IMG/VR virus record: IMGVR_UViG_3300048090_000069
Span: 25,652 to 89,651 of that record
DNA length: 64,000 nt
DNA from: a virus
Taxonomy: Duplodnaviria; Heunggongvirae; Uroviricota; Caudoviricetes
Direction: 5' to 3' (one strand)
Shown: positions 258-53,767 of the stretch, piece after piece
How the letters are laid out: each line of letters begins with the position of its first letter
How positions within the stretch are numbered: the first letter of the stretch is position 1
Translations under genes and position numbers: made by a program
The notes under the pieces: model-generated
Database searches by the model: none
Told to the model about the DNA's origin: nothing
What the model saw: the letters and a program-made list of their open reading frames with translations, nothing else

Positions 258-3200
258 ATGGATATTGCATCTCTTAACGTAAAAGTGAAGTCAGAAGGAA
301 TTCAACAGACAACAAATCAATTGAATTCTCTTGGCACTGCTGCTGCGAACACAGAAAAAAAAGTACAAAACCTTGTCGATGCTGTTGACAAGATGGTTAA
401 ACAATTCGCTGCGGGAGCATCTTCCACTAAAGCAATGACAGATGCCCTCTCCGTTGTGAATCGTTCTACACAAGCATCTGACGCAGCACTGAAATCCTTG
501 ACAACCTCTGTTACGAACCTTCAACGTGAAATCACTTCGCTGAATGGTAGATTACAACAAGGTTCGGGTGCTGTCAACCAGTCTACCGTAACTATTGTGC
601 ATAACACTGCTGCAATGAATGACGCACATGCTGCTGCCAGAGGCTTATCTGGCTCTCTAGGAGCTTTGTGGTTAACTTATGGTAATGTAATCCCCCTTGC
701 CGCTGGTGCGGCTATTGGCGCTTCTCTGAAGGCTATAGTGACGGTTGGTGTAGATGTACAAAGCACTTTGGAGAATATCCGTGTCCGTACTGAATCTACT
801 ATTGAAGAAGTAGCTCTGTTAGGAAAGACCATTTCTGATCTAGGTCAAGGTATTTATGGCCCTCAAGAAGTTGCTAAAGCACTAGAGACATTGACATTAG
901 CCGGTTTATCTGCTAAACAAGCTGTCACAGCTATTGGTGCAGCTTTGAATCTAGCAACATCTGGCGGTACTACTATTGAGAAATCTGCGGAAGCTCTCGT
1001 CACTATCGGGACTGCGGTAGGTGCTACATCAGCAGAATATGACTATCTTGCCGATGCTATTCAGAAGACAGCTAATATCTCTTTGGCATCTGTTGATAGT
1101 ATTGCGGAGACAGTTAAAAGAGCTTCCGTAGTTAATAAATTATATGGCGCTTCATTTGAAGACATCTTAACACAATCTGCTGCATTAGCACAGTTAGGTA
1201 TTAAAAACACGGCTGCTGGTACTGCTATTACTAACTTTTATGCTAATGCTCGTGCAGAAACAGAGAAAGCAAAGAAGGCAGTAGATGCTTTAGGTTTTTC
1301 CTTCCAAGATACAAACGGTAAAGTTAAGGAAATTGTTCCTGCGATTGAAGGTTATGCCAAGGCGTTGAATAAATTTGATTTAAACTCCCAGAAGGAGTTA
1401 ATCACGGCGCAGTTTGGTGAACGTTCTCTTAGAGATATCCAAGCATTAATCTCTTTGTACAATACGGCGGCAGAAAGCCAAGAACGTTTAGCTGATGGTA
1501 CATTGAAGTACAAGAATCGTCTTGAGGAAATTCAGGCACAAGTGCAAGATTCAGCCGGGGCTGCTGTTATTGCGGCATCTCAACAGGCACTATCCACAGA
1601 GAACTTATTCAAAGCAACTGCCAACTCTCTAAAAACTTCTTTAGGTGATGCTTTCAAAGTTATTGAGCCGGATGTACAACGTGTTTCTCGTATATTAAGG
1701 GATGGATTTGCATCTCAAGAATTTAAAACGGCTGTTGAAAATGTGGCACGAGGGTTTGTCTCTGTTGCAAAAGCGATTGCAGAAAACATTGGCCCGTTGA
1801 CAATGTTAGTTGAGTTGTTTTTAACTTACAAAGCCATTGTCGCTGGTGGTGCGTTATTCACAACCATGATTCCTGCAATTGAAGCGGTTGGTATGGCCGT
1901 ACTTACATTAGGTGGCGCTACTCAAACTGCTGCTGTTGGCATGAGTGCTATGGGGGTTGCAACAGCCACTACTACTACAAGTATGTTGGCTCTGACAAGA
2001 GTTATCCCCGGAATTGGGGCAGCATTAGCTGCTGCAACTGCTGTTTTCGCATTATACTCGTTGCACGCCAAAGACGCTACCGATAATACTACAAAATTAG
2101 CAGAATCGAAACGTCAAGCTGCTGTTGACTACAACACAGACTTTTTAAAATCTTTGTCTGAGGAAGCTACTCGTATTGAACTAGTGAATGAGCAAATCAG
2201 TAAAGGTATTACTTTAACAGATGCTCAAACTGAGGCTAACAAGAGACTTGCACTTGAAAAGCAAAAAGATATCAACAACTCTTCTGTTGATGCGGCCCAG
2301 AAAGCCTTAAATGATGCACAAAGAGATGTCTCAAGACTAAGCTCCAGTTCCGGTACAGGTAGGGAGGGAGAAGACCTGAAGAACGCGGTAGCACTTGAGA
2401 AAGCTCTTAAACAAGTCACAATAGCACAGAAGCTTTTAAACGCTGCTAAAACAGATGCGGCAGAAGCAGATAGAAAAGCTCTAGAAGACATGGAAAGAAT
2501 TCGGAAAGGTTCGGCCTTTCAGCAGTCCATGATTCGTGCTCAAACTCTTGGCGCGGAGTTGGAAGCAAGGGAGCGTGCTGGTAGTCAAACATTCAATCCT
2601 GAAGCTGATAAAGCAGCACAGAAGCAATTAACTTTCCTTGAAGAAGAACAACGACAGCTAAAACTGTTAGCCGCTGGTTATCAAGCTCGTGGGGATGCTT
2701 TAATTAAGTCTTATCTAGCTGGTGAGAAGATTGCTGCTGATACACAACAAGCTCGTATCAAAGTTAATCAGGAAGAAGGTAAGTATGCTTCTGATAAAAT
2801 TGCAGCACAAGAACTTATCCTTGCAAAGAATGCTGATGAGAAGAAGGATTATGAAGAACGTGCAAAAATCTTTACAGAGCTTGGTTTTAAAACACAAGGT
2901 ATCATTGCAGGAGAAAAAGCAGCACAAGAAGCTTTTGCAAAAGGTGATACAGACCGCAAGGGCAACTTAGAGCGTCAAGCAAACAAAGCTGCGGACTTTA
3001 TCAAGCTAACTGTAGAGCAACGTGATGCTTTCGTAGAACAAGCTGCGGCTGCTGAACTCATAAACAAAGCTATCGAATACAGAATTAAGCTTGAGTCTGA
3101 AACTAAGTCTGCGGGTGGCCGTGCTGATGCTCTGATGGCTCAAGCTGAAGCAATGTCTGAATATGGTAGTAAAGCAAAATTCACAGCACTTGATTTAGCC

Positions 3201-6200
3201 AAAGGAAAAGTTGCACAAGAAGAATTTACAGATGCAATTACTAAAGGTGCTCAAGCTGCATATATTGCTAGTGCTGCATACGAAACTGCTGCAAAGGCTT
3301 TGGTCAATATCACTAAGATTGGTCAACAGTCTGCGGAAGATGAAGAAAAAGCACAGGCAGATAGCTTGCTGATTTTCGCTGATACTGAGAAAAAGAAAGT
3401 AGAAATTAAAGCAAATTCTGCTAAGAGGATTATTGCCTCCAATTTAGCACAGGCTGAGTCTGCTGCTGGTACAGGGGACGAGAAGGCTATTGATGCTTAT
3501 GAGAAAGCAAAGATATCTTCTGTCAATGCTATTGCACAGATTGACAGGACAACCATTCTCAAAACTCACAACATCGAGTTAGAAGACTGGAAGAAAACAG
3601 CTAATCAAATTGTTGATGCAACTATCGAAGGTTTTGAACGTTCCCGCGATCAAGGATTAAGCATTTGGAAATCCTTAACTAACTCTATCAAAGACATGTT
3701 TAAAAAGACAATCTTTGATTATATTAAAAAAGAGTTTGCAAAACCTATCCTTCTTAATCTTGTTGCAAGTACAGCCGGTACGCTTGGTTTCTCAAGCTTG
3801 TCTGAAACGGCTGGTAAGATGGCTGGAAGTTCTTCTGGTTCAAGTGCAATTAGTTTGGCATCTGCTGCTAACAATATTTACAAAGCTATTAGCGGTGGTT
3901 TTGATGGGCTAGCCTCTTCAATTTCTAATGTAGCTCAGAGTGGACTAAACCTTCTTGGCCCTAACTCTGGCTTCTACACAGGAGAGGCAACTTCTGGTAT
4001 TGCAAATACTTCTCTTGCTAATGGTATTGGTACTGCTGGTAGTGCTGTAGCAGGGATTGCCGGTGGAATTTATGGTGGGCGTGCAATCTCTGGTGGTTAT
4101 TCTGCATTAGGTAGCTCTGGGAATAGTGCTGTAAACATTAGTACTATTGTTGGTGCTGTTGTTGGTGGGCCACTAGGGGCTTTAATTGGTGGATTGATTG
4201 GTGGTTCTGTTAATCGTTTGTTTGGACACAAAGCTAAAGAGATTCAGTCGCAAGGTATTCGCGGAACTTTAAGTGGTGATGCAGCAACTGGTGAAAACTA
4301 TGCTAATTGGATTCAAAAGGGTGGTTTGTTCAGGAGCGATAAAAAGGGAACAGAGACATCTGCTATTACTTCAGATATTCAAAATACATTAACCAGTAGC
4401 TTTAACCAACTGAAATCTACAGTAGGATATTTTGCTAAAGATGTTGGTGTTGGTACTTCTGCATTAGATGGCTTCACAAAACAATTTGATATTGCATTTG
4501 GAACTGATGCACAAAAGAATCAAGAAGCTGTAACAAAATTCTTCACAGATTTAGGTGATGAGTTTGTTACAAAGCTGATTCCTAACATATCTGACTTTGC
4601 AAGACAGGGTGAAACTGCTTCTCAAACTTTGGAAAGATTGTCCGCAACTTTCAAAATCACAAATCAAATTGTTGAGATTCTGGGTAAAACTGGAGAGCAA
4701 GCATTTGGTAGTGTAGGGCTGGCATCGGATAAAGCTCGTGAACGTCTGATTGATTTAGCTGGTGGTATTGATAAACTTGGCTCTAAAGTTACAGCTTATG
4801 CTTCTGATTTCTTAACGGATGCTGAGAAAATAGCTCCTGTGAAGAAAGCAGTTAATGAAGCATTGACATCTCTCGGATTAGCTGGTGTAACAACTAAAGA
4901 GCAATTCAAAAATATTGTCAACGGACTTGACCTTACTTCTGAAGCTGGTGCAAAACTGTTCAATGATTTACTAGACTTAGCTCCTGCATTTGCACAAGTG
5001 GCTGATGCTGCTGATTCTGCTGCACAGGCTGCTAAAGACGCTGCTGAAGCTGCTGAAGAGGCACAAAAAGCTGCTTTTGAAGCTGCCATGAAAGCTGTAG
5101 ATGCCTCTTTCAATAGACTGAAAAAATCTGTCGATGCACAGAAGTCTGTGGAGAATGACAGATACAATCAAGAAGTGGCATTTATTAAGGCGGTAGGAGA
5201 GGCACGTAAAAATGCTGCTCAAACTGAATTAGATACTGCTAAACAAACTGTCAGTACGTTGTCAGGTATTTTAAGTAGCTTGCAGAATGCTTTGGTTAGC
5301 ACAAAAGTTGAATCTGTGGCGCTAGATAAAGCTCGCCGTGTTTCTGCTCAAACTTATTTAGCATCTATTCGTGGAACAGACTTATCTAAAGCCTCTGGAT
5401 TAAATGATGCCCTTGGAAATGTTTCTGGGGACTCTAAACAGTTCTTCGCAACATTTGAAGAGTATGCTTTGGATCAAGCTAAGACAGCCAATTTAATTTC
5501 TGGCTTAGTTAATGAAACCACTATTAGCAAGAGTTTTGCAGAATTGACAGTTGAACGTTTGAATGATACAATTACAGCAATTCAAAATTCTACAGATGCT
5601 CAATTATCTGCTGCTGAAAGTCATCACAATGACGAAATAGCCAAGTTGGATAAGGTTATTGATGCGGCTCAATTACAAATTGATGCATTAAATGGAATTC
5701 AAACTGCTGTTCTTTCTGTTACATCTGCTATTGCTAATTTCAATGCTGCTGTTAATGCTGCGGTAGGTGCGGGAGGTAGTGTAGGTGGTAATCCTAGCCC
5801 TACTTATAGTGGAACAGGTAGTAGTGGTAGTATTCCTAGCAATGGCGGTGGTGGTCTTGGTAGTATGTACGTCAACCCTATTGGCTCTGGTACAGGTGGT
5901 TCTGAGTCTAATCCGTTCTTCTGGGAAAACACTGTCTGGGACTTCATGCGCAATGGAGCATACGTAGATGGTAGCCATGCATCCGGTTTAGGTTATGTTC
6001 CGTTCGACGGTTATATTGCAGAGCTTCACAAAGGCGAGCGAGTTATGACCGCTGCCGACAATGCAAACCTCTCTCGCCAAGCAGATAGTGCAAGTAGTGG
6101 TTCTTCTCAAGATATTAACTCTCTGAAAGCTTCCATTGAAGACTTGAAGCAAGCAATTGTTTCTGGAGATATTGCAGTAGTTGGATATCTGAGAGAGATG

Positions 6201-13351: not shown

Positions 13352-14308
13352 TTAGTAAACCCATTCACCTTGTAGAGAATCTTTACTGTAAGCTGTAATG
13401 GTAGTCTCAAAGAAGTTACCAAGAATACCATCCCCTGTTATTTCCTCAACAAACGGAAGAGGATTTTTCTGAATGCCGAATTGTGCCTTGAAGCCCATTT
13501 GTTGCATACGGTAATCACACACAAGACGAATATAGTCTTTTAAATCTTGTTTGTCAAGCAGTTTTGGTTGATGTACAGAGTAACACAAATCAATGAAATC
13601 ATCTTCCAACTTCACAACCTCCCGTGCTGTTTCATAAATGTTGCGCTTAAGTTCTTCTGTAACAACTGAAGGATTCTCTTCAACAAAAATTTTAAACAGT
13701 TCAGACAAACCTTCTACATGATAAGATTCTTCAATAATGCTCCATTGATTGACACTCACCATCCCCGGAAGTTTATTCACACGAGAGTAGTCAAGCAGCA
13801 TAGCGAAGGATGCAAACAGATTAACACCTTCCATCAGAATTTGTTTGGCTAGGTATTCAGCCTTCCCTTTATTAGAGCGAAGGTCTGTAGCTTCAACCAT
13901 AAAATCATGCTTATCCTTCATCTCTTTATACTGTAAGAATTCAGACATAAATTCTTCACTGTCATACCCGAGAGTGTCATTCAGACGTTTGTATCCAAGC
14001 ATGTGTGTTGTTTCACGACAGGCAAACGACAGCAGCATAATCCTAGCGTCAGCGTTCTTGAATACAGGGAGAAGTTTCTCAACATATCCTGCACAAACAT
14101 CTGTATCAGCTTGTGTGAATAGGCGGAGAATCATCTTTGTGTAAGCCTTCTCTCCTTCTGAAATTGTGCCATCCTTCCACTGCACAACGTCTACAGACAT
14201 ATCAGCTTCTTCAGGATACCAGTGCGCACGTTCATGCTTGGCGTAAATCTCTTGCAGTTTATGATAACGTGGTACGAAGATTTCGGTAGTTTCTGTAATT
14301 TTACTCAT
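13352..14308 (-). CDS. nrdB: ribonucleotide reductase class I beta subunit
   Basis: 318 aa with di-iron/tyrosyl-radical motifs (E...H, RETTHM-like) typical of NrdB/R2. Confidence 0.85.
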   Translation of the reverse strand: MSKITETTEIFVPRYHKLQEIYAKHERAHWYPEEADMSVDVVQWKDGTISEGEKAYTKMILRLFTQADTDVCAGYVEKLLPVFKNADARIMLLSFACRETTHMLGYKRLNDTLGYDSEEFMSEFLQYKEMKDKHDFMVEATDLRSNKGKAEYLAKQILMEGVNLFASFAMLLDYSRVNKLPGMVSVNQWSIIEESYHVEGLSELFKIFVEENPSVVTEELKRNIYETAREVVKLEDDFIDLCYSVHQPKLLDKQDLKDYIRLVCDYRMQQMGFKAQFGIQKNPLPFVEEITGDGILGNFFETTITAYSKDSLQGEWVY

Positions 14309-14311
14309 TGT

Positions 14312-16180
14312 TTATCCTTGACACGAAACACAAACATCTTCACCAGACCAATCAACTAATGCACGACGTTCAATAGCTTTGGCATTATCGGACACGCCCT
14401 CTCGCTCCCCTCTATAATAATACATTGTCGTCACGTTCTCACTCTTCAGGAATTTCAAGTGGACAGAATTAACATATTGCCTACTGCTACCAAATGGGAA
14501 ATACACATTCAAACTTTGACTTTGGAATCCTGCACCAAGAGCACTTGCACGAGCATCAGCTTGTTCGATTACCCAATGCATATCTAATTCCATTGCTGTA
14601 GCAAACACTTTACGTTCATGCTCAGACAGGAAAGTCAAATCAGCAACACTACCATCTTTAGAGAGAATGTAATCCCACGTTGCATCATCATCTTGTCCGT
14701 AGCTCTGTAGCACCCTTTGTAGATGACGATTCTTTACACGGAAGTTACCAGCACGAGTAGACTTCAGGAACACATTACGGAAGTATGGCTCAATGCAAGG
14801 AGAAGTGTCTAGCAGGTCAGCACTGTTTGCATTTGGTGCAATAGCTGTTACACGGCTATTACGAAGTCCTGTACCTTTCATATCTTCTGGCTCACCACGT
14901 TCAATTGCTAGTTCTCTGCTAGAGGCTTCAGCGCGCTTTGCAATCATACCATAAATCTGATGTGTATGTTGAATAGCACTGTTGAATCCACCACCCTCAA
15001 ACGGAATACCTTTACTCTGCAAATAACCATGCCAACCTAGAGTGCCAAGCCCAATAGCACGCTCTCGTTCAGCAGAATATTTAGCTTTCCTGAGATTATC
15101 TGGTGCTGTGTCAATAAAGCTCTGAAGAACATTGTCCAAGAAACGAATCAAATCTTCAACAATCCTCGTATCTTTCCACTCTTCATATTTCTCAATATTC
15201 AAACTAGACAGGCAGCAGACGAAGGTACGTTCTTCATTTGTGGGCAGAGTAATTTCAGAACACAGATTACTACCTTTAATCTCTAATCCTAAATCCTTTT
15301 GGGATTGTGGCATCAGACGATTAGCCAAGTCAATCTTCATCAAATATGGCTCACCTGTCAGAGCACGAGTTTCAAGAATCTCTTCCCACACTTTACGTGC
15401 TGCCAGTGTCTCCCTAATTTCGCCAGTGTGAGGGCATTTCAAATCATACCATGTATCTTTCAAAACAGCTTCAATAAACTTGTCTGTCAGATTTACAGCA
15501 TTGTGAAACTGTTGCCGATTATCACTCCTACGCTTACTGTCACCACCGGGCTTACGGAAACGAATATGCTCAATAATATCTGGATGATCTACACGTTGAT
15601 AAGCAGCGATTGCACCTTTTCGTGTCTTACCTTGACGATAATATCCAATTGCACTGTCCATCACTTTCATATAAGGAATCGGGCCGGGGGCTTTACCCCC
15701 TACAGCACGAATACTCATATGAGCACCTGTACCACCTCCAGCAAGAGACAAATCAGCAAGCTCTTGCATCACTTCCACTTGACCTTTAGTTGTGTCTGGA
15801 ACATCAAAGGCGAAGCAAGAGATAGGTTGACCGTTATATTTCTCTGTAGGGAAGAATGTGTGTAGTTTGTTCCATTCAATACCTTTTGACCAATTCTTCC
15901 ATTCACCTTTTTGCGCATTACTGAGAACAGGACTAGCATACATGAACCATCCATTGTGTACATAATCATAAATACGTTGTGCTAGTTCATAGTCTCCGTA
16001 GCAATAAGCAACAGCAGGTCGTGCCAGTGCTTCAGAGATTGTTTCATCATCACGCTTGTAGAATCCGTCTAACAGTGTTCGGGAAAACTCAGTGATATAA
16101 GCAGGGTCTTCTTTATTAATTTCAATTTCAAGATACTTTTCTTTTGTCATTTCCACCCTTTGTTCATTTGAAGAAAGCAT
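14312..16180 (-). CDS. nrdA: ribonucleotide reductase class I alpha subunit (short form, no ATP-cone)
   Basis: 622 aa with conserved RNR large-subunit segments (GLGTLGWHG, SNLCSEI, NRHL). It sits directly upstream of nrdB. Confidence 0.85.
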   Translation of the reverse strand: MLSSNEQRVEMTKEKYLEIEINKEDPAYITEFSRTLLDGFYKRDDETISEALARPAVAYCYGDYELAQRIYDYVHNGWFMYASPVLSNAQKGEWKNWSKGIEWNKLHTFFPTEKYNGQPISCFAFDVPDTTKGQVEVMQELADLSLAGGGTGAHMSIRAVGGKAPGPIPYMKVMDSAIGYYRQGKTRKGAIAAYQRVDHPDIIEHIRFRKPGGDSKRRSDNRQQFHNAVNLTDKFIEAVLKDTWYDLKCPHTGEIRETLAARKVWEEILETRALTGEPYLMKIDLANRLMPQSQKDLGLEIKGSNLCSEITLPTNEERTFVCCLSSLNIEKYEEWKDTRIVEDLIRFLDNVLQSFIDTAPDNLRKAKYSAERERAIGLGTLGWHGYLQSKGIPFEGGGFNSAIQHTHQIYGMIAKRAEASSRELAIERGEPEDMKGTGLRNSRVTAIAPNANSADLLDTSPCIEPYFRNVFLKSTRAGNFRVKNRHLQRVLQSYGQDDDATWDYILSKDGSVADLTFLSEHERKVFATAMELDMHWVIEQADARASALGAGFQSQSLNVYFPFGSSRQYVNSVHLKFLKSENVTTMYYYRGEREGVSDNAKAIERRALVDWSGEDVCVSCQG

Positions 16181-33627: not shown

Positions 33628-34281
33628 TTAGGACGTAACCTTAAACACACTGTTGATTTGTTCAGCAATCAGCGTAGCGAGGATAACGTGTTCCTTCTGA
33701 GTCACACCTTCTTCCATGCGTACTTCCAGATAATGAATCCAAGAGCGAATTGTACCATTCACGTATAGACGACTCATAGTAAGTCCTTCAGGAAGAATTA
33801 CACGAGCAACCTCTTTAGCAACACCTCGATTCAGAGCACGAGTGTACGTGTCTTTGACAATATGCAGAAGCATTGCTTGTTCACTCTTCCACCAATCAGC
33901 AAGCAATTCATCATCAGCTTCTAGGCTGTTCTGGCGGTTCTTGTTGTCCTGCATACGAAGCTCACGAAGACAGAAAGCTTGTTCAAGTTGTGTCACATCA
34001 GCATAACGCTGAGAGAACTCTTGGAATCTGAAGCTAGTGTGTCGCAGAAGTTGGCGAGCAATATCTCGTGGGGATTCCACTTCCACAACAACATTAGCCA
34101 TCTCAAACGGACTCCAATGTTTGTGCTTCATCAGATAGGCAGTAAGCTTTTCTGCTGTATCCATATTCATCTGATTAGAGGGATTACTCACACGCGCACA
34201 ATATGCAATCAGGTCGTGCATATCCTCTAGGCCCTCTACAACAGGCTTCGTCACAGCAATTAGTTTTGCACTAAACGTCAT
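33628..34281 (-). CDS. thyX: flavin-dependent thymidylate synthase
   Basis: The ThyX signature RHTSFRFQEFSQRY matches the RHR...SQRY motif. Confidence 0.75.
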   Translation of the reverse strand: MTFSAKLIAVTKPVVEGLEDMHDLIAYCARVSNPSNQMNMDTAEKLTAYLMKHKHWSPFEMANVVVEVESPRDIARQLLRHTSFRFQEFSQRYADVTQLEQAFCLRELRMQDNKNRQNSLEADDELLADWWKSEQAMLLHIVKDTYTRALNRGVAKEVARVILPEGLTMSRLYVNGTIRSWIHYLEVRMEEGVTQKEHVILATLIAEQINSVFKVTS

Positions 34282-38508: not shown

Positions 38509-38924
38509 GTTTCCTCCATGTAAAATTTATGTAAACCAATTGTGCGACGATGTTTAAACTTCTTATTCCACTCAGGATGTTTGTCCAACCTATGAAAATG
38601 AGAACATCCTCTACAGACAGGAGACATTCTAAACAACTCTTCCCATCCTGTCAAGCTCTTTGTTTCAATAATCTTCTGCCATGTGAAGCCAGAGAATTGC
38701 TTAGGCTGTAGAGCCACAACAGGGCAACTCTTGTTTGTACGTTTCATCCTCTCTAGAACTACGTCCATCACTGCACGCTTCCCTGCTAAGGACTCCCCTG
38801 AAGCCTCATGCTCTACGACAGCTTTCAAACAAACAGTGTCAGAGACAGCGAAGCTCCTAGAGGGATTGTCTACGTTGATACAAACAAAGAGTAGAAGAAG
38901 GCTCCAGAGCCATTTCAAGGCCAC
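38505..38924 (-). CDS. secreted SleB-like cell-wall hydrolase (Hydrolase_2 family)
   Basis: N-terminal signal peptide. The body carries EASGESLAGKRAVMDVVLERM...PKQFSGF, matching the SleB/CwlJ-type hydrolase motif. Confidence 0.5.
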   Translation of the reverse strand: MALKWLWSLLLLFVCINVDNPSRSFAVSDTVCLKAVVEHEASGESLAGKRAVMDVVLERMKRTNKSCPVVALQPKQFSGFTWQKIIETKSLTGWEELFRMSPVCRGCSHFHRLDKHPEWNKKFKHRRTIGLHKFYMEET

Positions 38925-40540
38925 AGGCGCTTACGAATCTTTTCTAGAGAGTCTTCTACAACCAGCTTACCATCTTCAAACACTGTTCGCAGTAATCCTT
39001 GTTTCTCTTCTTCAGGAGTTTGCTCATCGTACAGGACAAACCTCCCATCTTCATATTCTACACGGAGCAAACCTTTAGCAGATTTCTTCATGCCATCACC
39101 CGTTTTAGGGTCTTTGAAAATGTTACGTGGCTCTCCATTGACAATGCCGTAAGTGGCTTTCATAGCAAAGCCGTAGCTGTCACGAGTGACATGCTGATAG
39201 GTGTAGGAGCCAATGCCAAATACAATGTTAGAAGAGGCAAAGCCTTTAGCTTCCAGACGCTTCAGAATTTGCTGAGCACGTTCCAGAGTGATGCTGTCTC
39301 CGTAAATCAGACCAACACGAGGATTCAACATTTTGTGTCCTGTCTCGGACAGAGTACCACCAAAGATGTCCCAAAGGCATTCTACAGAGCCTTTTACTTC
39401 GTGCTCTGACACTTCCCGGCCTAGTTCAATGTCCATCAGACAATTACAAGAATCCCCACAGAAACTGTAATCAAATTCGTAATACTTGCCGTCTTTGACC
39501 GCTACATCAGTGGAATAGATATTGTCCTCGCAAACATCGTCAATATCTGTCACACGAAGTCCAGCAACAATTTTTACAGGATCACCACTATCAGGACGGA
39601 ACACCACCTTAGCATTACCCAGAGCATCAGGCTTACGTGCAAGGATGATGTCTTTCAGTTGTGCAGCAGTGTTTGTAATGACATTCCAGTAGTCCCAAGT
39701 GTCCGAAACAATACTAACAATACCGGACGGATATAGGTCAGTGATGAGACGCTTAATTGTAGCGTATTCACCTTCATCTGCCCCGCCCATGCACATTACA
39801 GAATGCTCCGTAGCTGGAACAGACCCACCAACAAACGTTTCACTGCCCTTGTAGTACTTTTCCAGATATTCAATGGCAGAAATAGTGTCAGTGCCAAGGA
39901 AAGACAGTAAGTGACCCGGAGCACTTTGAGCACCATCGAAGCTCCCAGACAAACCACGAAGCGAGAAATCATGACCTTGCCACAGAATAAACTCCTTAGG
40001 CGCACCTGTCTTTTCTGCATAATCCGTCAGCAGCTTACGATATTGGTAAGCAGTGGTTGCAGTGGTCGTAGGCTTCCACAGGTTGTTGCTGTACGCATCT
40101 TCCAGATAACCAACCAGCCAGCCAAAGCCGATCACCGTATTAGTGACAGTGAGTACAGGTACTTTAATATCTACCAAACTACCTTCAGGCAAAGCTTTGA
40201 TGCGCAGCGGCAGATAGCCCAAATCATGCAGGGCCGCAATGTGCGAGACATCAACAGCATCAGGGCCAAGGCACTTATCCATCATGGCTTTGTATTCACC
40301 TACAGCTTGTTCCTTTGGAACATTGAAGAATTGTTCATTGAACAAATCAATCAGGAAGTATTTGATAAAGCCTTGCAGGCCAAAGAATACAATCTTCTCG
40401 TCAAACGTATCTTTCAGCTTTGGTGCAAGCCGAGAGGAACGGGCAGTGAAATTAGAATAGACGTATTCCGTACCTTCTGGATACATCTTAACGTGTCCCG
40501 TCTTGTACATATCAGCAGCAAACAGCGGATTCAGTTTCAT
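38915..40540 (-). CDS. nadV: nicotinamide phosphoribosyltransferase family protein (Nampt/NadV homolog; could be the Namat-type nicotinamide ADP-ribose transferase)
   Basis: 541 aa with clear Nampt-family similarity along its length (MKLNPLFAADMYKTGH..., GTDT, C-terminal region). It is adjacent to a Prs-like gene. Confidence 0.85.
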   Translation of the reverse strand: MKLNPLFAADMYKTGHVKMYPEGTEYVYSNFTARSSRLAPKLKDTFDEKIVFFGLQGFIKYFLIDLFNEQFFNVPKEQAVGEYKAMMDKCLGPDAVDVSHIAALHDLGYLPLRIKALPEGSLVDIKVPVLTVTNTVIGFGWLVGYLEDAYSNNLWKPTTTATTAYQYRKLLTDYAEKTGAPKEFILWQGHDFSLRGLSGSFDGAQSAPGHLLSFLGTDTISAIEYLEKYYKGSETFVGGSVPATEHSVMCMGGADEGEYATIKRLITDLYPSGIVSIVSDTWDYWNVITNTAAQLKDIILARKPDALGNAKVVFRPDSGDPVKIVAGLRVTDIDDVCEDNIYSTDVAVKDGKYYEFDYSFCGDSCNCLMDIELGREVSEHEVKGSVECLWDIFGGTLSETGHKMLNPRVGLIYGDSITLERAQQILKRLEAKGFASSNIVFGIGSYTYQHVTRDSYGFAMKATYGIVNGEPRNIFKDPKTGDGMKKSAKGLLRVEYEDGRFVLYDEQTPEEEKQGLLRTVFEDGKLVVEDSLEKIRKRLWP

Positions 40541-40543
40541 TGT

Positions 40544-41368
40544 TTAAATTTCCTTAATTTTATTGTGAGAGCCAAACATATTGTTTACAACATAGATATT
40601 GTCATACACATCAGCAACAATGTCAACACCTTTAGTAAAAATACCATGTGTCACCATGATGTTGATAGTGCCGTGATAGTGCATCTGAAGCTCGTCAGCC
40701 AGCGGAATGAACGTGCCGCCACCATCTAGAATATCATCTACGACAAGAACATTTTTGTCTTCAAATTGCCCAATATCATTGTACACAACAGTGCCAGTGA
40801 TTTTCCCCGTCTTGACATCTCGTGTCTTGTCAGCCCTCATCACTTCCACTTCGGGAATATACGTAGAGACAAACTGAGCATACTTCTGAATCTTCTTCAA
40901 TGCCCCAGCATCAGGACTTACAATCACAGTGGCCTTGCAATCTTGCATAGCTTTCAACACTTTTTGTTCCACAGAGCAAATATGAATGTTGTACAACAGA
41001 GCACCTAAAACATCACTGTGAGGGTCTGTGACAAACACCCTATCAAAATTCATGCTGTTAATGAAATTACAAATAACTTTCAAACTATGACTCTCTCCAG
41101 CATTACAAACCCTATCTTGGCGAGCATATGGGAAATAATCAATCGTCAGATTTACAGGAATCTTCGGATAGTTTCTCCGCACAGCATCATTCAGCAGAGC
41201 AAGTTCAATCAAATCCTCATTACCTTGCCACTTCAATGTAATATGTGCTTGAGGGTGTTGTGAATTATATCCCAAAGCCATATCAGTTAGCTTAATACCG
41301 GTTTCTCCTGCTGGAAAATTCCATCTATTAATTGTTACAGGATGGCGGTCTACATATAAACTAAGCAT
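40544..41368 (-). CDS. prs: ribose-phosphate pyrophosphokinase family protein (Prs homolog; could be Adps-type ADPR pyrophosphokinase)
   Basis: YARQDR motif and PRPP-binding loop VVDDILDGGGT are present. At 274 aa it is shorter than canonical Prs. Confidence 0.85.
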   Translation of the reverse strand: MLSLYVDRHPVTINRWNFPAGETGIKLTDMALGYNSQHPQAHITLKWQGNEDLIELALLNDAVRRNYPKIPVNLTIDYFPYARQDRVCNAGESHSLKVICNFINSMNFDRVFVTDPHSDVLGALLYNIHICSVEQKVLKAMQDCKATVIVSPDAGALKKIQKYAQFVSTYIPEVEVMRADKTRDVKTGKITGTVVYNDIGQFEDKNVLVVDDILDGGGTFIPLADELQMHYHGTINIMVTHGIFTKGVDIVADVYDNIYVVNNMFGSHNKIKEI

Positions 41369-45406: not shown

Positions 45407-45435
45407 TTGACACATCAATCGTGTGTACTTATAGT
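45407..45435 (+). promoter_or_regulatory. sigma70-type promoter (TTGACA-17-TATAGT)
   Basis: Consensus -35 element with 17-nt spacer, located upstream of the gene at 45511. Confidence 0.5.
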
Positions 45436-47126: not shown

Positions 47127-47350
47127 AATATTATAAAGGTGATTTAGTAGTAAATGAACAGCGTTTTGGTGACGTTTGGACATCACGCATCGATACAATC
47201 TCCGAACATGGTCATGTGTGGAATGGACGTATTCAGATTTATGGAGAGTCACAAGAGGAAGTGGAAAAGCTTCGTGATGAGTTTTTGAACCTTCGTCAAC
47301 AACTGGAAGCAGCTAACAAGCTCATTGCACACAAAGCAAAAACAGAGTAG
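47123..47350 (+). CDS. hypothetical protein
   Basis: 75-aa ORF with overlap to its neighbour. Confidence 0.4.
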   Translation: MKYYKGDLVVNEQRFGDVWTSRIDTISEHGHVWNGRIQIYGESQEEVEKLRDEFLNLRQQLEAANKLIAHKAKTE

Positions 47351-47411
47351 AATTCATCTCACTGTAACAATTTACGAAGTAAAACAATCCCTCTAAAACA
47401 GGAGCTATACA

Positions 47412-49415
47412 ATGTCTGACTTTAAGCCGTTTTCTCAAGCTGTACACAAGCAATTCTCTGAAATGTCTAAACACGAACTGTTCGTTGTGGACGTATCCGG
47501 GGACGACCTCTTTGCTGCCTATCTGGCTGCATTCCCTGAAGGCACCAACCCAATCTACCGTGAGCGCACTGAGCACGATTGCTCTTGCTGCAAAAATTTC
47601 ATTCGTAATATTGGCAATGTTGTTGCTGTTGTGAATGGTAAGATGCAAACCGTATGGGACACAGTGAACGTTGGCAGTGAGTATGATATTGTAGCGAAAG
47701 CACTGTCTATTATTGTAAGTGCTGCGCCTATTAAATCTCTCTTCCGTGCGTCTGAAAAGCAATACGGTGCAGAATCCACTGTAGAACTGAAAGACGGTGT
47801 TACGAAGCGCTGGAACCATTTCCACGGACAGATTGCGAACAAGCATTACACTAAAGAAGTTGGCTCTGTCGTAGGAGAATACAATACGTCTGTGAGCGTC
47901 TTTAAACGTGGTCTGGAAGAACTCACTCCAGAAGCATTTGCTACTGTCATCGACCTGACCAATCAGAACAATCTTTACAAAGGAAATGATTTCCTTGCTG
48001 CTGTCACGGCTTTCTCCAAAGCACAACAGGATTACAACAAACTGAGCGCACAAGAAAAGAATAATTATATTTGGCAGAATGCTGGCAACATGGCCCTGTC
48101 CCGCTTTCGCAACACCGCCATTGGCACCCTTCTGGTTGATCTGTCTGCTGGTGTGGACATTGAAGCCGCTGTAAAATCGTTTGAACAAAAAGTAGCTCCA
48201 ACTAACTACAAACGTCCTAATGCTCTCATCACTCAGAAAATGGTTGATGATGCAATGAAAACTATCGATTCTCTGGGTCTGGAGCCTGCTCTGGAACGGC
48301 GACATGCCACGCTGGAAGATGTTTCTGTCAATGACATCCTCTTCGTGGACAACAATGTTCGTGGTAAGCTGAAGGGCGGCGTGGCTAACGTTCTGGCTGA
48401 TGCTGTTGCACCTGTTGAAGTGAAAGAAAGCAAAGCTCAAGAAATTAATGTAGATGACTTCCTGAAGAACGTTGTTCCCGGTGCTAAGAGTATTGATGTT
48501 CATGTGAAAAATCAGCATCAAGCTAATTTTGTCAGCATCACGGCTCCTGTGCATGAGGAAGTGGAGCCTCTGTTCAAATGGGATAATAATTTTGCTTGGA
48601 GCTATGACGGCAATGTGACAGATAGTATCAAAGAACGTGTGAAGGCTCAGGGCGGTATTACGGATGCAAAATTCCGTGTGTCTCTGGCATGGTATAACAA
48701 AGACGATTTGGATTTGTATATCAAAGAACCTGATGGCTATCAAATCTACTTTGGTAACAAAGGCGTGCGTAGCAAGAACACTGGTATGCTGGATGTGGAC
48801 ATGAATGCTTATGGCCCGCATAGCGATACAGAGCCTGTGGAGAACGTTGTGTGGAGCCGTCCGATGGACGGGCAATACATTGTCACTGTAAACAATTACA
48901 ATCAACGTACTACTGTCAATCCCGGCTTTACGCTTGAAGTGGAGTCGGATGGTATTGTGCATCAGTATAGCACTCCCACCTCTCCGCGCAGTGGAAACAA
49001 CAAACATGCTTTGACTATCACTGTAAAGGGTGGTAAAGTGGTTGACATCAAACCAACTCAAGGTGTTGTTGGTGGTGCATTCAGCCAAGAGAAATGGAAC
49101 ATTGAAACTGAAAAGTTTGTACGTGTCAACACCATGATGCTGTCTCCGAATCACTGGAATGGTAAGGAAATTGGCAGCAAACACGTATTCTTTGCTCTGG
49201 AAGGTTGTAAAAATCCTGTTCCAACGCGGGGCATTTACAATGAATTCCTGAAGGGCGACTTGGAGAAGCATCGTAAAGTATTTGAATTGTTGGGGCAGAA
49301 AACTATGTGCCAGCCTTCTGAGAAACAGATTAGCGGATTGGGTTTTACGTCTGCTCGTGGTGATAGTGTTGTAGTGAAAGTGAATAATCAAAAGTTGTAT
49401 AACGTTAAATTTTAA
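47412..49415 (+). CDS. large early protein of unknown function (667 aa)
   Basis: Protein-like composition, AGGAG RBS. The minus-strand ORF overlapping it is low-complexity. No recognisable catalytic motif. Confidence 0.6.
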   Translation: MSDFKPFSQAVHKQFSEMSKHELFVVDVSGDDLFAAYLAAFPEGTNPIYRERTEHDCSCCKNFIRNIGNVVAVVNGKMQTVWDTVNVGSEYDIVAKALSIIVSAAPIKSLFRASEKQYGAESTVELKDGVTKRWNHFHGQIANKHYTKEVGSVVGEYNTSVSVFKRGLEELTPEAFATVIDLTNQNNLYKGNDFLAAVTAFSKAQQDYNKLSAQEKNNYIWQNAGNMALSRFRNTAIGTLLVDLSAGVDIEAAVKSFEQKVAPTNYKRPNALITQKMVDDAMKTIDSLGLEPALERRHATLEDVSVNDILFVDNNVRGKLKGGVANVLADAVAPVEVKESKAQEINVDDFLKNVVPGAKSIDVHVKNQHQANFVSITAPVHEEVEPLFKWDNNFAWSYDGNVTDSIKERVKAQGGITDAKFRVSLAWYNKDDLDLYIKEPDGYQIYFGNKGVRSKNTGMLDVDMNAYGPHSDTEPVENVVWSRPMDGQYIVTVNNYNQRTTVNPGFTLEVESDGIVHQYSTPTSPRSGNNKHALTITVKGGKVVDIKPTQGVVGGAFSQEKWNIETEKFVRVNTMMLSPNHWNGKEIGSKHVFFALEGCKNPVPTRGIYNEFLKGDLEKHRKVFELLGQKTMCQPSEKQISGLGFTSARGDSVVVKVNNQKLYNVKF

Positions 49416-50473: not shown

Positions 50474-50634
50474 ATGATTTGTTCTAAATGTAATTCCGAA
50501 ATGTATCATTCGGACGGATGGGAAGAATGTTGGGATGGAGAAACAGAAGAGTGTTATTGGTGGGGGCGGTGGGATTGTCTTGAATGCGGGCATTTTATCT
50601 GTTCGTATGACGATGGATATGAGGGAGTGGAATG
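50474..50634 (+). CDS. Zn-ribbon mini-protein
   Basis: 53 aa starting MICSKCNSE...CLECGHFIC. It is below the ORF-track cutoff. Two CxxC pairs. Confidence 0.35.
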
Positions 50635-50889
50635 AAAGGCATATATAGACCAATTGCAGAACATCTTCGCACATTCTGCGCACAAGATCAATTTGTTATT
50701 TATCTAGATTCTTTTCGCTGGAAGCGTTATAAGGAAGACGATCCTTGGTTGAATGATGAAAATCATCAAGACGAAGTGTTAAGCAACCATTATGATAGTA
50801 TGTCTCTTGAACAACTAGCAGAAGATTTCGGATATGAGATTGATTGGAAATTTAATTTACATCATGTAGCCATTGTGAGGATGAAATGA
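50632..50889 (+). CDS. hypothetical protein
   Basis: 85-aa ORF. Confidence 0.4.
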   Translation: MKGIYRPIAEHLRTFCAQDQFVIYLDSFRWKRYKEDDPWLNDENHQDEVLSNHYDSMSLEQLAEDFGYEIDWKFNLHHVAIVRMK

Positions 50890-51032
50890 AATGCCCTGAA
50901 TGTAATTTTCCAATGACACGCTTCAATTCAGAGCATGATTATAATCCTCCCGGTGATTGGGAGTATTTTTATTATTGGCAATGCAACATGTGTTTTGAGA
51001 CAATTGAAGAAGATGATATGGAGGAAGAATGA
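50886..51032 (+). CDS. Zn-ribbon mini-protein
   Basis: 48 aa starting MKCPECNF...CNMCF. Confidence 0.35.
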   Translation: MKCPECNFPMTRFNSEHDYNPPGDWEYFYYWQCNMCFETIEEDDMEEE

Positions 51033-51140
51033 AACTAAAATCAGCAGTAACAACATATGAAATTTCTCTGATTTTAAAATCTGCTCAATATTTGTAAAAC
51101 TACATTTCCAAAATTTTCCCACATGCCCCAGAAAATCATG

Positions 51141-51165
51141 GCCCTCCTAGTGAGGGCTTTTTGCA
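51141..51165 (+). terminator. intrinsic terminator
   Basis: GCCCTC-CTAGT-GAGGGC hairpin followed by TTTTTGCATTT. Confidence 0.7.
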
Positions 51166-51381
51166 TTTCTCTTGCCTGTTTGTATGAAAGTGTGCTTTAA
51201 CAAGATTTGTTGTATTAAAGAAAGCTTACATTTGTGCAACACAAGCTCCCTCTCAAACAGCCTAGAACACTTTCCAACATTTGTCTAGAACTATTTTGAC
51301 AACAAAAAGCTTGTTTCTTTGTTTTGTGCGTGCTAACATGGGTTCATTGAAGAACAGCCGACAGGCTTACAGGAAAACGAA

Positions 51382-51576
51382 ATGAAAAAACATATCATGC
51401 TTATTCGTGAAGTTGTAGACGGATGGGAGTATCGTATTGTGGAAAGCACTGTGCGCCGCCTTGTTAGTGCGGAATGGAAGTACATGAACCACAGCGAAAA
51501 CATTTCTTTAGAAGATATTGCAGAGCATTTTAACAGTTCTACAATTATCAATGTGACGAATCATTTCAGGGAGTAG
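51382..51576 (+). CDS. hypothetical protein
   Basis: 64-aa ORF. Confidence 0.4.
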   Translation: MKKHIMLIREVVDGWEYRIVESTVRRLVSAEWKYMNHSENISLEDIAEHFNSSTIINVTNHFRE

Positions 51577-51658
51577 TCATCATGAGCCAATCAGAACACG
51601 AACAAGCCCGACGAGAGCTTGGATTTCCATTCAATACGAAACGTTAAGGGGAAATAAC

Positions 51659-51847
51659 ATGACCAAAGCATATTTAGCAGGATTTATTGCCGGGACACTT
51701 GGCAGGGGTTGGGAAGATTGCCCTTTTGCTAATCGTCTGACCCATGCTGCTGTAGAATGGCGCAGAGGCTGTGATGATGGTAATCAGACACAATGCGGTG
51801 ATTCTTGGACAGCAGAACAAATATTAAAAGGTACTAGCCATGGCTGA
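51659..51847 (+). CDS. rmf: ribosome modulation factor (RMF)-like protein
   Basis: The 62-aa protein MTKAYLAGFIAGTLGRGWEDCPFANRL...EWRRG aligns with E. coli RMF core RGYQAGIAGRSKEMCPYQ...WLGGW. The AG.hAG and CP(Y/F) motifs are shared. RBS AAGGGGAAATAAC. Confidence 0.45.
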   Translation: MTKAYLAGFIAGTLGRGWEDCPFANRLTHAAVEWRRGCDDGNQTQCGDSWTAEQILKGTSHG

Positions 51848-52094
51848 ACTCATTCAAGGCTACATTGTCAGTAGCTCAAACTCATCGTCCAAACAGCCTA
51901 GCTCCATCACTGTCAAAAACTCTAACGGCACCATCCTAGCTCGTGTTCGTAGCGACGAATGCAAGCTGCTATCGAAAGTGAGGCTGTGGGCAAATCATCC
52001 TCTACGGGCAGAATTGACAGCACAGCTAAAAAGCTGCAACGTGCAAGAGGAAATTATTCAGGAAATTTTGAAGCCTAAGCGGAAGGAAAACTAA
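51840..52094 (+). CDS. hypothetical protein
   Basis: 84-aa ORF. Confidence 0.4.
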   Translation: MAELIQGYIVSSSNSSSKQPSSITVKNSNGTILARVRSDECKLLSKVRLWANHPLRAELTAQLKSCNVQEEIIQEILKPKRKEN

Positions 52095-52980: not shown

Positions 52981-53135
52981 TTATGCACATCATGTCCAAA
53001 CAAGCAATTATAGATGCTGCTAAACGTGCCTTCGCAAGCGAATTCGTTGTAGGTGATGCGGACAGTTTTCCTCAAGAATTCTCGCATTGGCTTGCTGTGC
53101 AGCAGAACAAGGGATTTTATTGGAGCGTGGAGCTA

Positions 53136-53767
53136 TGAGTAACATTCCAGAAAATATGCGTGCATTCTCCTTAGATGCTGCTAAAAGCGGGCATCCTCTG
53201 ACAACACGCGCTGGCCGGGAGGTGAAGTTTATTGCACATGTACCGGATTCTAAGGATGATGATGCAAAAGTGGTGGCAATGCCTAACGGAGAGCGCCCCT
53301 ATTTCTACTATGAAAATGGTAAAATGTGGAATAGTGGTAGAGGGGACGAAAACCTGTTCCTAGCCCCTCTCGGCTATGTGGAAGGTAAGTCAGTATTTGT
53401 TGGTGACAAGCTTCTAAACTCCTTTGGAAATGAATTTGAAGTGAGTTTGCATGTACATTTGAATGCTGTCTATGTATGGGGGGTTTGCTCGTGGCCCTCG
53501 CAGAAGCCTGTTGTTGAAACACAGCTTACAGACGGAGATATCAATTGTGCTTGGAAAACTACTGCATATGGCACAGGTGGCTTGCGAGAGTTCGCTAATA
53601 TTGCTATTGCTCGCGCCATTGCAGACGGAGACGTTATTCCGACAGAGGTTGTAGAAAAAATTGCTTCAGATGCTTTTACAGAGCAATTCTGTGCAGGTGA
53701 TAGTTTTAAAAATGTGTTTAAACGTATGATTCAAGAGTACAAAAACTCTCTGAAAGGAACTAAATAA
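53136..53767 (+). CDS. hypothetical protein
   Basis: 210 aa from the Met with RBS GGAGCGTGGAG. Confidence 0.5.

Follow-up and report, generated by a model that had tools for sequence, protein, structure and literature searches.

The window, the whole 64,000-nucleotide stretch of DNA analysed here, comes from a tailed phage. A 1999-aa tape-measure-like protein is encoded at its left end on the + strand. Between about 12 and 44 kb lies a - strand block with the genes for ribonucleotide reductase (13352..16180, -), ThyX (33628..34281, -), DNA polymerase A, a primase-helicase, NAMPT (38915..40540, -) and a PRPP-synthetase-like protein (40544..41368, -). NAMPT, the PRPP-synthetase-like protein and ThyX place genes of NAD and nucleotide salvage on the phage (33628..41368, -). 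A single tRNA-Met (CAT; 21620..21696, -) lies inside this replication and metabolism block. From about 44 kb to the window end runs a + strand block of dozens of small ORFs without known families, which houses a gene resembling ribosome modulation factor (RMF). A 667-aa DUF8224 / phrog_1735 protein is encoded at 47412..49415 (+; E 1.9e-247). Opposite its gene is a stop-free 689-aa antisense ORF (47322..49391), and the + strand gene is clearly the real one. Two zinc-ribbon-like mini-ORFs of 53 and 48 aa (50474..50635 and 50886..51032, +), with paired CxxC motifs and acidic tails, are located just upstream of the RMF-like gene.

The RMF-like gene occupies 51659..51847 (+), exactly where the sequence-only reading had placed it. 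It starts with ATG and encodes an acidic mini-protein of 62 aa with an RMF/CrpP fold (MTKAYLAGFIAGTLGRGWEDCPFANRLTHAAVEWRRGCDDGNQTQCGDSWTAEQILKGTSHG). A Shine-Dalgarno-like AAGGGG (51646..51651, +), read off the sequence, precedes the ATG by 7 nt. The first called gene of its co-directional unit encodes 64 aa (51382..51576, +) and belongs to no known family; it is called in all related contigs and had no match in the PHROG search. The gap between this gene and the RMF-like gene holds a possible 21-aa ORF (MSQSEHEQARRELGFPFNTKR, 51582..51647, +), read from the sequence and called by no source, whose TAA stop falls within the Shine-Dalgarno region of the RMF-like gene. Downstream, the start of an 84-aa gene (51840..52094, +) overlaps the RMF-like stop by 8 nt (ATGGCTGA, 51840), which suggests translational coupling of the two. 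The 84-aa gene had no match in the PHROG search, and is considered real because related phage contigs encode homologues of its product (L017, 41% over 73 aa, E 1e-14; L013). On record, 16 contigs encode exactly the same 62-aa protein, the longest being a JGI scaffold of 90,390 bp (IMGVR_UViG_3300046513_000108). The 62-aa ORF is a genuine phage accessory gene.

An intrinsic-terminator-like hairpin with a T-run (51140..51158, +) closes the preceding unit, so the transcript of the RMF-like gene must begin downstream of it. The gene had been assigned an early sigma70 promoter, which was not confirmed. No sigma70-like site with at least 9/12 matches was found between the terminator and the operon start at 51382. 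The sole candidate in this gap is weak (TTGTTT-17-TGcTAACAT, 51311..51339, +); it has 7/12 matches plus an extended -10 TG, and is below the scan threshold. Strong TTGACA-17-TAxxxT sites occur elsewhere in the + block, at 45407, 46112 and 52265, just after terminators or in intergenic gaps. Overall, promoter-like sites are not in excess of those in shuffled sequence (28 vs 25.9). Judged from the layout, early, sigma70-driven expression of the RMF-like gene is plausible.

In every retrieved locus, the RMF-like gene lies in an array of small ORFs that share its direction and have no known domains. All-against-all BLAST of the neighbors in seven loci revealed no fixed neighbor. A protein of about 210 aa (158-226 aa) recurs downstream of the RMF-like gene in four loci (window 53135..53767, +; L011 424-900; L014 3734-4345; P0019 contig 2629-3249), directly adjacent to it in two. 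Pfam gave no match for this protein or its two tested homologues. It may be a loose functional partner of the RMF-like protein. A megablast of the region against 50,697 deposited phage genomes found no match at E <= 0.01.

Database searches identified about 20 homologues of the 62-aa protein. All are metagenomic, are 57-62 aa long and share 33-64% identity, and their conservation pattern is protein-like. They define a subfamily whose start, MTKAYLAGFIAGT, corresponds to helix 1 and is nearly invariant. This most conserved segment is a helix of hydrophobic and small residues, not an acidic surface. The carriers are tailed phages of about 86-90 kb; in IMG/VR, two genomes, of 90 kb and 86 kb (IMGVR_UViG_3300046513_000108 and IMGVR_UViG_3300034175_000060), carry the subfamily gene. 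Among the 50,697 deposited phage genomes, tblastn with the 62-aa protein found no match at E <= 0.01, and at E <= 10 only four partial, non-significant matches (E ~2). A metal site formed by its three Cys and one His was considered and rejected, as these residues are not conserved in the subfamily. The related phage contig L014 contains a second, diverged RMF-like copy (4911-5072), some 1.5 kb downstream of its first one; 53 aa long and with 41% identity over 41 aa, it does not reach Pfam RMF.

Profile searches relate the 62-aa protein to RMF. The Pfam RMF profile (PF04957), which covers a broad family that also takes in phage proteins, matches residues 2-41 with E 2e-5 and 25.0 bits, short of its gathering threshold of 27.9 bits. 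The NCBIfam RMF equivalog NF011162 gives E 5e-6 and 26.3 bits against a cutoff of 40, and the NCBIfam Rmf/CrpP family NF041886 gives 14.4 bits against a cutoff of 28. Alignment to RMF profiles, the check proposed in the sequence-only reading, therefore returns significant E-values for Pfam RMF and NCBIfam RMF and misses the curated cutoffs. RMF was the top Pfam family for all seven subfamily members scanned singly (best E 3.3e-6), and the member P0009 bears a precomputed PF04957 hit. An hhalign comparison of two profiles, one of 19 subfamily members and one of 16 bona fide RMFs, gave a probability of 87.7% and E 3.4e-6. When RMF-type profiles were run against all six-frame ORFs of the window, the 62-aa ORF was the sole match (next best E ~1), and no second RMF-like copy was found.

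Structure prediction gave a consistent picture. AlphaFold2, given the family alignment, produced a confident model of the 62-aa protein (mean pLDDT 85), with helices at residues 3-13, 29-45 and 49-57. RMF is the best structural match of this model, with structural E-values that are weak because the domain is tiny. A PDB sequence search with the 62-aa protein returned nothing at E <= 10. RMF was ranked first by four independent methods, and the likeness is above chance.

The conserved cores of the two proteins align in register. Phage G8, F9, A11, G12 and G15 correspond to RMF G16, Y17, A19, G20 and G23, phage C21-P22-F23 to RMF C29-P30-Y31, and phage W34..G37 to RMF W40..G43. The CP(Y/F) and Trp/Gly motifs named in the sequence-only reading are thus present and aligned. 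Its wording of the third motif, AG-h-AG, needs correction; the phage protein has AG-FI-AG where RMF has AG-I-AG, and the shared register is G..AG..G. The 62-aa protein has the two-helix RMF fold with the C-P-Y turn, and profile-profile similarity, structural similarity and the in-register core place it in the RMF fold superfamily. We conclude that it is very probably homologous to RMF and shares its fold. The proposal of a phage-borne RMF homologue is therefore supported by Pfam RMF, hhalign and structure, at the level of fold and superfamily.

Function is a different matter. Canonical RMF binds the 30S subunit and acts with HPF in forming 100S dimers. In the structure of the E. coli 100S particle, helix 1 of RMF inserts between h28 and h37/h40 of the 16S rRNA (bioRxiv 10.1101/382572). 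The conserved RMF residues Arg3, Lys5, Arg8, Arg11 and Arg15 form hydrogen bonds with 16S backbone phosphates, and the N-terminal extension and S7 are intertwined (Beckert et al. 2018, bioRxiv 10.1101/382572). Helix 2 and the linker touch the C-terminal extension of S7 and domain 4 of S1, the latter contacted by R37 (bioRxiv 10.1101/382572). The first residue of the phage protein aligns with RMF residue 9, and consequently the basic N-terminal extension is missing and R3, K5 and R8 are unmatched. None of the 19 subfamily members has an equivalent of R3 or K5, and 18 of them have none of R8, the remaining one having Met. R15 is replaced by Ala in 18 of the 19. Four of the five reported rRNA-bonding residues (R3, K5, R8 and R15) are thus absent or replaced, and only R11 is retained, as Lys, in all 19 (K3 of the 62-aa protein). 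Other positions differ as well. The position of R37 is mostly Ala, that of R45 is D/V/T and that of E10 is T/N, and Cys29 of the CP(Y/F) motif is kept in only nine of the 19.

The charge of the protein also differs from that of RMF. The 16 canonical RMFs are strongly basic, with a median pI of 10.4 and a net charge of +6. The 62-aa protein has a pI of 6.0 and a net charge of -1, and the subfamily medians are 4.7 and -4; the charge argument is weaker for the 62-aa protein than for the subfamily median, because its net charge is only -1. In addition, the subfamily model has a third, C-terminal helix that RMF does not have. Canonical RMF is encoded by a chromosomal gammaproteobacterial gene, and the RMF-like gene resides on a 90,390-bp viral contig. 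Among the defining features of RMF, the 62-aa protein has only the fold, and it is likely not a canonical RMF. A cleft lined with rRNA is unlikely to accommodate an acidic protein that has no phosphate-binding residues, and for this reason we do not class the 62-aa protein as a ribosome modulation factor. Some contact with the ribosome may still occur, given the invariant K3 and the retained core that positions helix 1.

The 62-aa protein has many counterparts in other phages. A Foldseek search of its model against the viral predicted structures in BFVD gave 133 matches. Dozens of them have a probability of at least 0.9 and are phage proteins of 44-60 aa. The hosts of these phages are Burkholderia, Caulobacter, Achromobacter, Serratia, Xanthomonas, Escherichia, Pseudomonas, Erwinia and Delftia, and several matches carry the UniProt name 'Ribosome modulation factor'. 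Annotated RMF-domain proteins include gp60 and gp76 of Agrobacterium phage Milano, and others in OLIVR4, in the Caulobacter phages CcrSC/CcrBL9 and in Delftia phage IME-DE1, together with Rhodobacter phage RcPeripeteia gp58 and Burkholderia phage BcepSaruman gp330. Both Milano proteins and five further extracted phage proteins all match Pfam RMF, at 23-36 bits, and three of the seven pass the gathering score. None of the five has a basic N-terminal extension, and all five are neutral or acidic, with net charges such as 0 for CcrSC gp271c, -14 for BcepSaruman gp330 and -15 for RcPeripeteia gp58.

A profile built from seven phage RMF-like proteins matches the 62-aa protein, alone among the ORFs of the window, at 23.9 bits (E 1.4e-6), and a canonical RMF profile gives it 16.1 bits. 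It is thus closer to the phage RMF-like proteins than to bacterial RMF. Like them, it is short, non-basic, free of the extension and encoded in an array of small genes. It belongs to no existing PHROG family; the PHROG search with the 62-aa protein gave no RMF-related or meaningful match, and phrog_10492 was touched only by its relative P0009 (E 0.0098). E. coli RMF weakly matches phrog_10492 and phrog_13106, both families without assigned function, and by tblastn it has no match in the deposited phage genomes. Aeromonas phage phiA034 gene0062 (gp62; L026 870-1493) encodes 207 aa, in which an N-terminal RMF-like domain (Pfam RMF, 22.7 bits) is followed by some 160 aa of uncharacterised C-terminal sequence. 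Such a fusion indicates that the RMF fold serves also as a module of larger proteins. The C-terminal part was compared with the recurrent protein of about 210 aa as a possible Rosetta-stone link, which was rejected (BLASTP E 0.11).

These distributions bear on two further claims of the sequence-only reading. It had deduced a gammaproteobacterial host from the RMF likeness. The same fold is found in phages of Agrobacterium, Caulobacter, Rhodobacter, Burkholderia and Delftia, and the deduction falls; the fold says little about the host, because such proteins occur in phages of Alpha-, Beta- and Gammaproteobacteria. One pointer to the host is the DNA polymerase, whose nearest deposited relative is that of Pseudomonas phage vB_PsaM_M1, an only distantly related phage (43% identity). 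The other pointer, the DUF8224 protein, is widely distributed. A proteobacterial host is plausible from the relatives of the DNA polymerase and replication genes. The use of an RMF by a phage had also been described as apparently not established. RMF-domain annotations have existed in phage records since at least 2019, and in this respect the statement was too broad; it stands for function, as our literature searches turned up no work on the function of a phage RMF-fold protein. What is new here is a divergent subfamily found only in metagenomes; the annotated, uncharacterised family of phage RMF-fold proteins to which it relates is already known.

We favor a reading, moderately likely in our judgment, in which the 62-aa protein is an accessory protein with the RMF/CrpP fold that has been stripped of its grip on rRNA and binds a protein instead. 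The three-helix protein keeps the RMF/CrpP core, with G..AG..G in helix 1, the (C/N)-P-(Y/F) turn and W..G in helix 2. It has lost the basic N-terminal extension, most of the residues that grip the 16S phosphates and the positive charge. It would be produced together with other small genes of the + block at 44-64 kb. Its partner would be a host protein, or possibly a phage protein, and the near-invariant N-terminal helix would be the likely binding interface. This helix is conserved more strictly than the fold demands and varies across other RMF-fold proteins, which points to it as the interface. On this reading, the protein would neither enter the h28/h37/h40 cleft of the 30S subunit nor induce 100S dimers. 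Protein binding is probably the right reading, argued mainly by exclusion (the protein is not basic and has no catalytic motifs) and by one precedent. The precedent is BatR (PA3049), an RMF homologue of P. aeruginosa with the RMF fold and an extra C-terminal helix, which is located on a 15-residue C-terminal extension absent from RMF (PMC13411936). BatR is reported to have no role in hibernation and to bind the kinase SrkA (PMC13411936). By analogy, the BatR-SrkA pair suggests that an RMF-fold protein can act by binding a protein.

A different possibility keeps the 62-aa protein at the ribosome, as an antagonist or modulator that mimics RMF. It would dock on S1 domain 4, the S7 tail, S21, S2 or another partner of RMF, and would prevent or reverse hibernation, or bias initiation, without gripping rRNA. 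The conserved fold combined with the lost RNA contacts fits this idea, as do the contacts of RMF helix 2 and linker with the S7 C-terminal extension and S1 domain 4. The ribosomal proteins surrounding the RMF pocket are basic, and an acidic ligand is conceivable for this reason. However, the subfamily does not conserve the residues by which RMF contacts S1 (mostly Ala for R37, T/N for E10), and the rRNA phosphates lining the pocket should repel an acidic protein. Relatives also occur in phages whose hosts lack RMF. We consider this explanation unlikely. A long shot is the version in which a viral mimic without rRNA contacts engages the proteins of the RMF pocket (S1 domain 4, S7, S21) or another hibernation component and blocks or reverses hibernation or retunes initiation. 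If true, such a mimic would help infection of starved cells, would be the first anti-hibernation factor encoded by a phage, and would point to a role for the many phage RMF-fold mini-proteins.

The functional equivalence proposed in the sequence-only reading would make the 62-aa protein a working viral RMF. Seated in the RMF site of the host 30S subunit, it would block the anti-Shine-Dalgarno region and turn 70S particles into hibernating 100S dimers, letting the phage manipulate the ribosome pool. Significant RMF similarity, the RMF-like fold, the invariant K3 in place of R11 and the conserved positions G16, Y17, A19, G20, G23, P30, Y31, W40 and G43 agree with it. The missing extension, the loss of four of the five rRNA contacts, the net charge of -1 (subfamily median -4) against +6, and the 26.3 bits against an equivalog cutoff of 40 speak against it. 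RMF-dependent 100S formation is described in Gammaproteobacteria (bioRxiv 10.1101/382572), and homologues of the 62-aa protein are found in phages of hosts outside this class. The cellular homologue BatR is also reported to lack a hibernation role (PMC13411936). Together, these differences make 30S binding and 100S formation in the manner of RMF improbable.

A similarly improbable explanation is that the 62-aa protein is an acidic nucleic-acid mimic or anti-defence decoy, comparable to the small acidic proteins with which phages imitate DNA or RNA. Extreme acidity is seen in several phage RMF-fold proteins, with net charges of -14 or -15 in 54-59 aa, and arrays of accessory genes are a typical setting of anti-defence genes. 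The 62-aa protein itself is nearly neutral at -1, though, and the most conserved segment is the hydrophobic and small-residue helix described above. No match to a known anti-defence family was found, and the PHROG matches of its relatives are to families of unknown function. Finally, that the ORF or its resemblance to RMF arose by chance, as might be imagined for a very short protein with scores below every curated cutoff and weak structural E-values, is scarcely credible given that four independent methods put RMF first, all seven homologues tested match RMF, about 20 conserved homologues exist in phage contigs, the gene has a Shine-Dalgarno sequence and translational coupling, and no other ORF of the window matches the profiles.

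A virus that switches host ribosomes into hibernation would be notable, and the evidence leads in another direction. Among phage accessory genes, the RMF fold recurs as a small scaffold without the RNA-binding features of RMF. This calls for caution in naming such phage proteins 'ribosome modulation factor' or deducing a host from them. The role of this widespread family is a cheaply testable question, and the subfamily together with Milano gp60, CcrSC gp271c and RcPeripeteia gp58 provides a defined set for a first functional test.

The 62-aa protein can be placed among known systems. E. coli RMF (P0AFW2; PDB 6H4N, 4V8G, 9IOT, 2JRM; NF011162) shares with the 62-aa protein the two-helix core in the same register and R11, present as K3. 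It differs in having the N-terminal extension MKRQKRDRLER, which the phage protein does not have. CrpP and the Rmf/CrpP family (NF041886), found on ICEs and plasmids of Pseudomonas, resemble the 62-aa protein in being small RMF-related proteins on mobile elements, and the family model gives it 14.4 bits against a cutoff of 28. The function of CrpP is disputed. BatR and the 62-aa protein, compared by description only, both have the RMF fold and an extra C-terminal helix. BatR is encoded by a chromosomal gammaproteobacterial gene and the 62-aa protein is phage-borne; BatR also retains a basic N-terminus. The phage RMF-domain mini-proteins (44-78 aa; PHROG 10492, 13106) have the core (Y/F)xxGxxAxxxG...(C/N)P(Y/F)...WxxG in common with the 62-aa protein. 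Like it, they are non-basic, have no N-terminal extension and are encoded in arrays of small accessory genes. Its subfamily is distinguished from these other phage proteins by the MTKAYLAGFIAGT start and the third helix.
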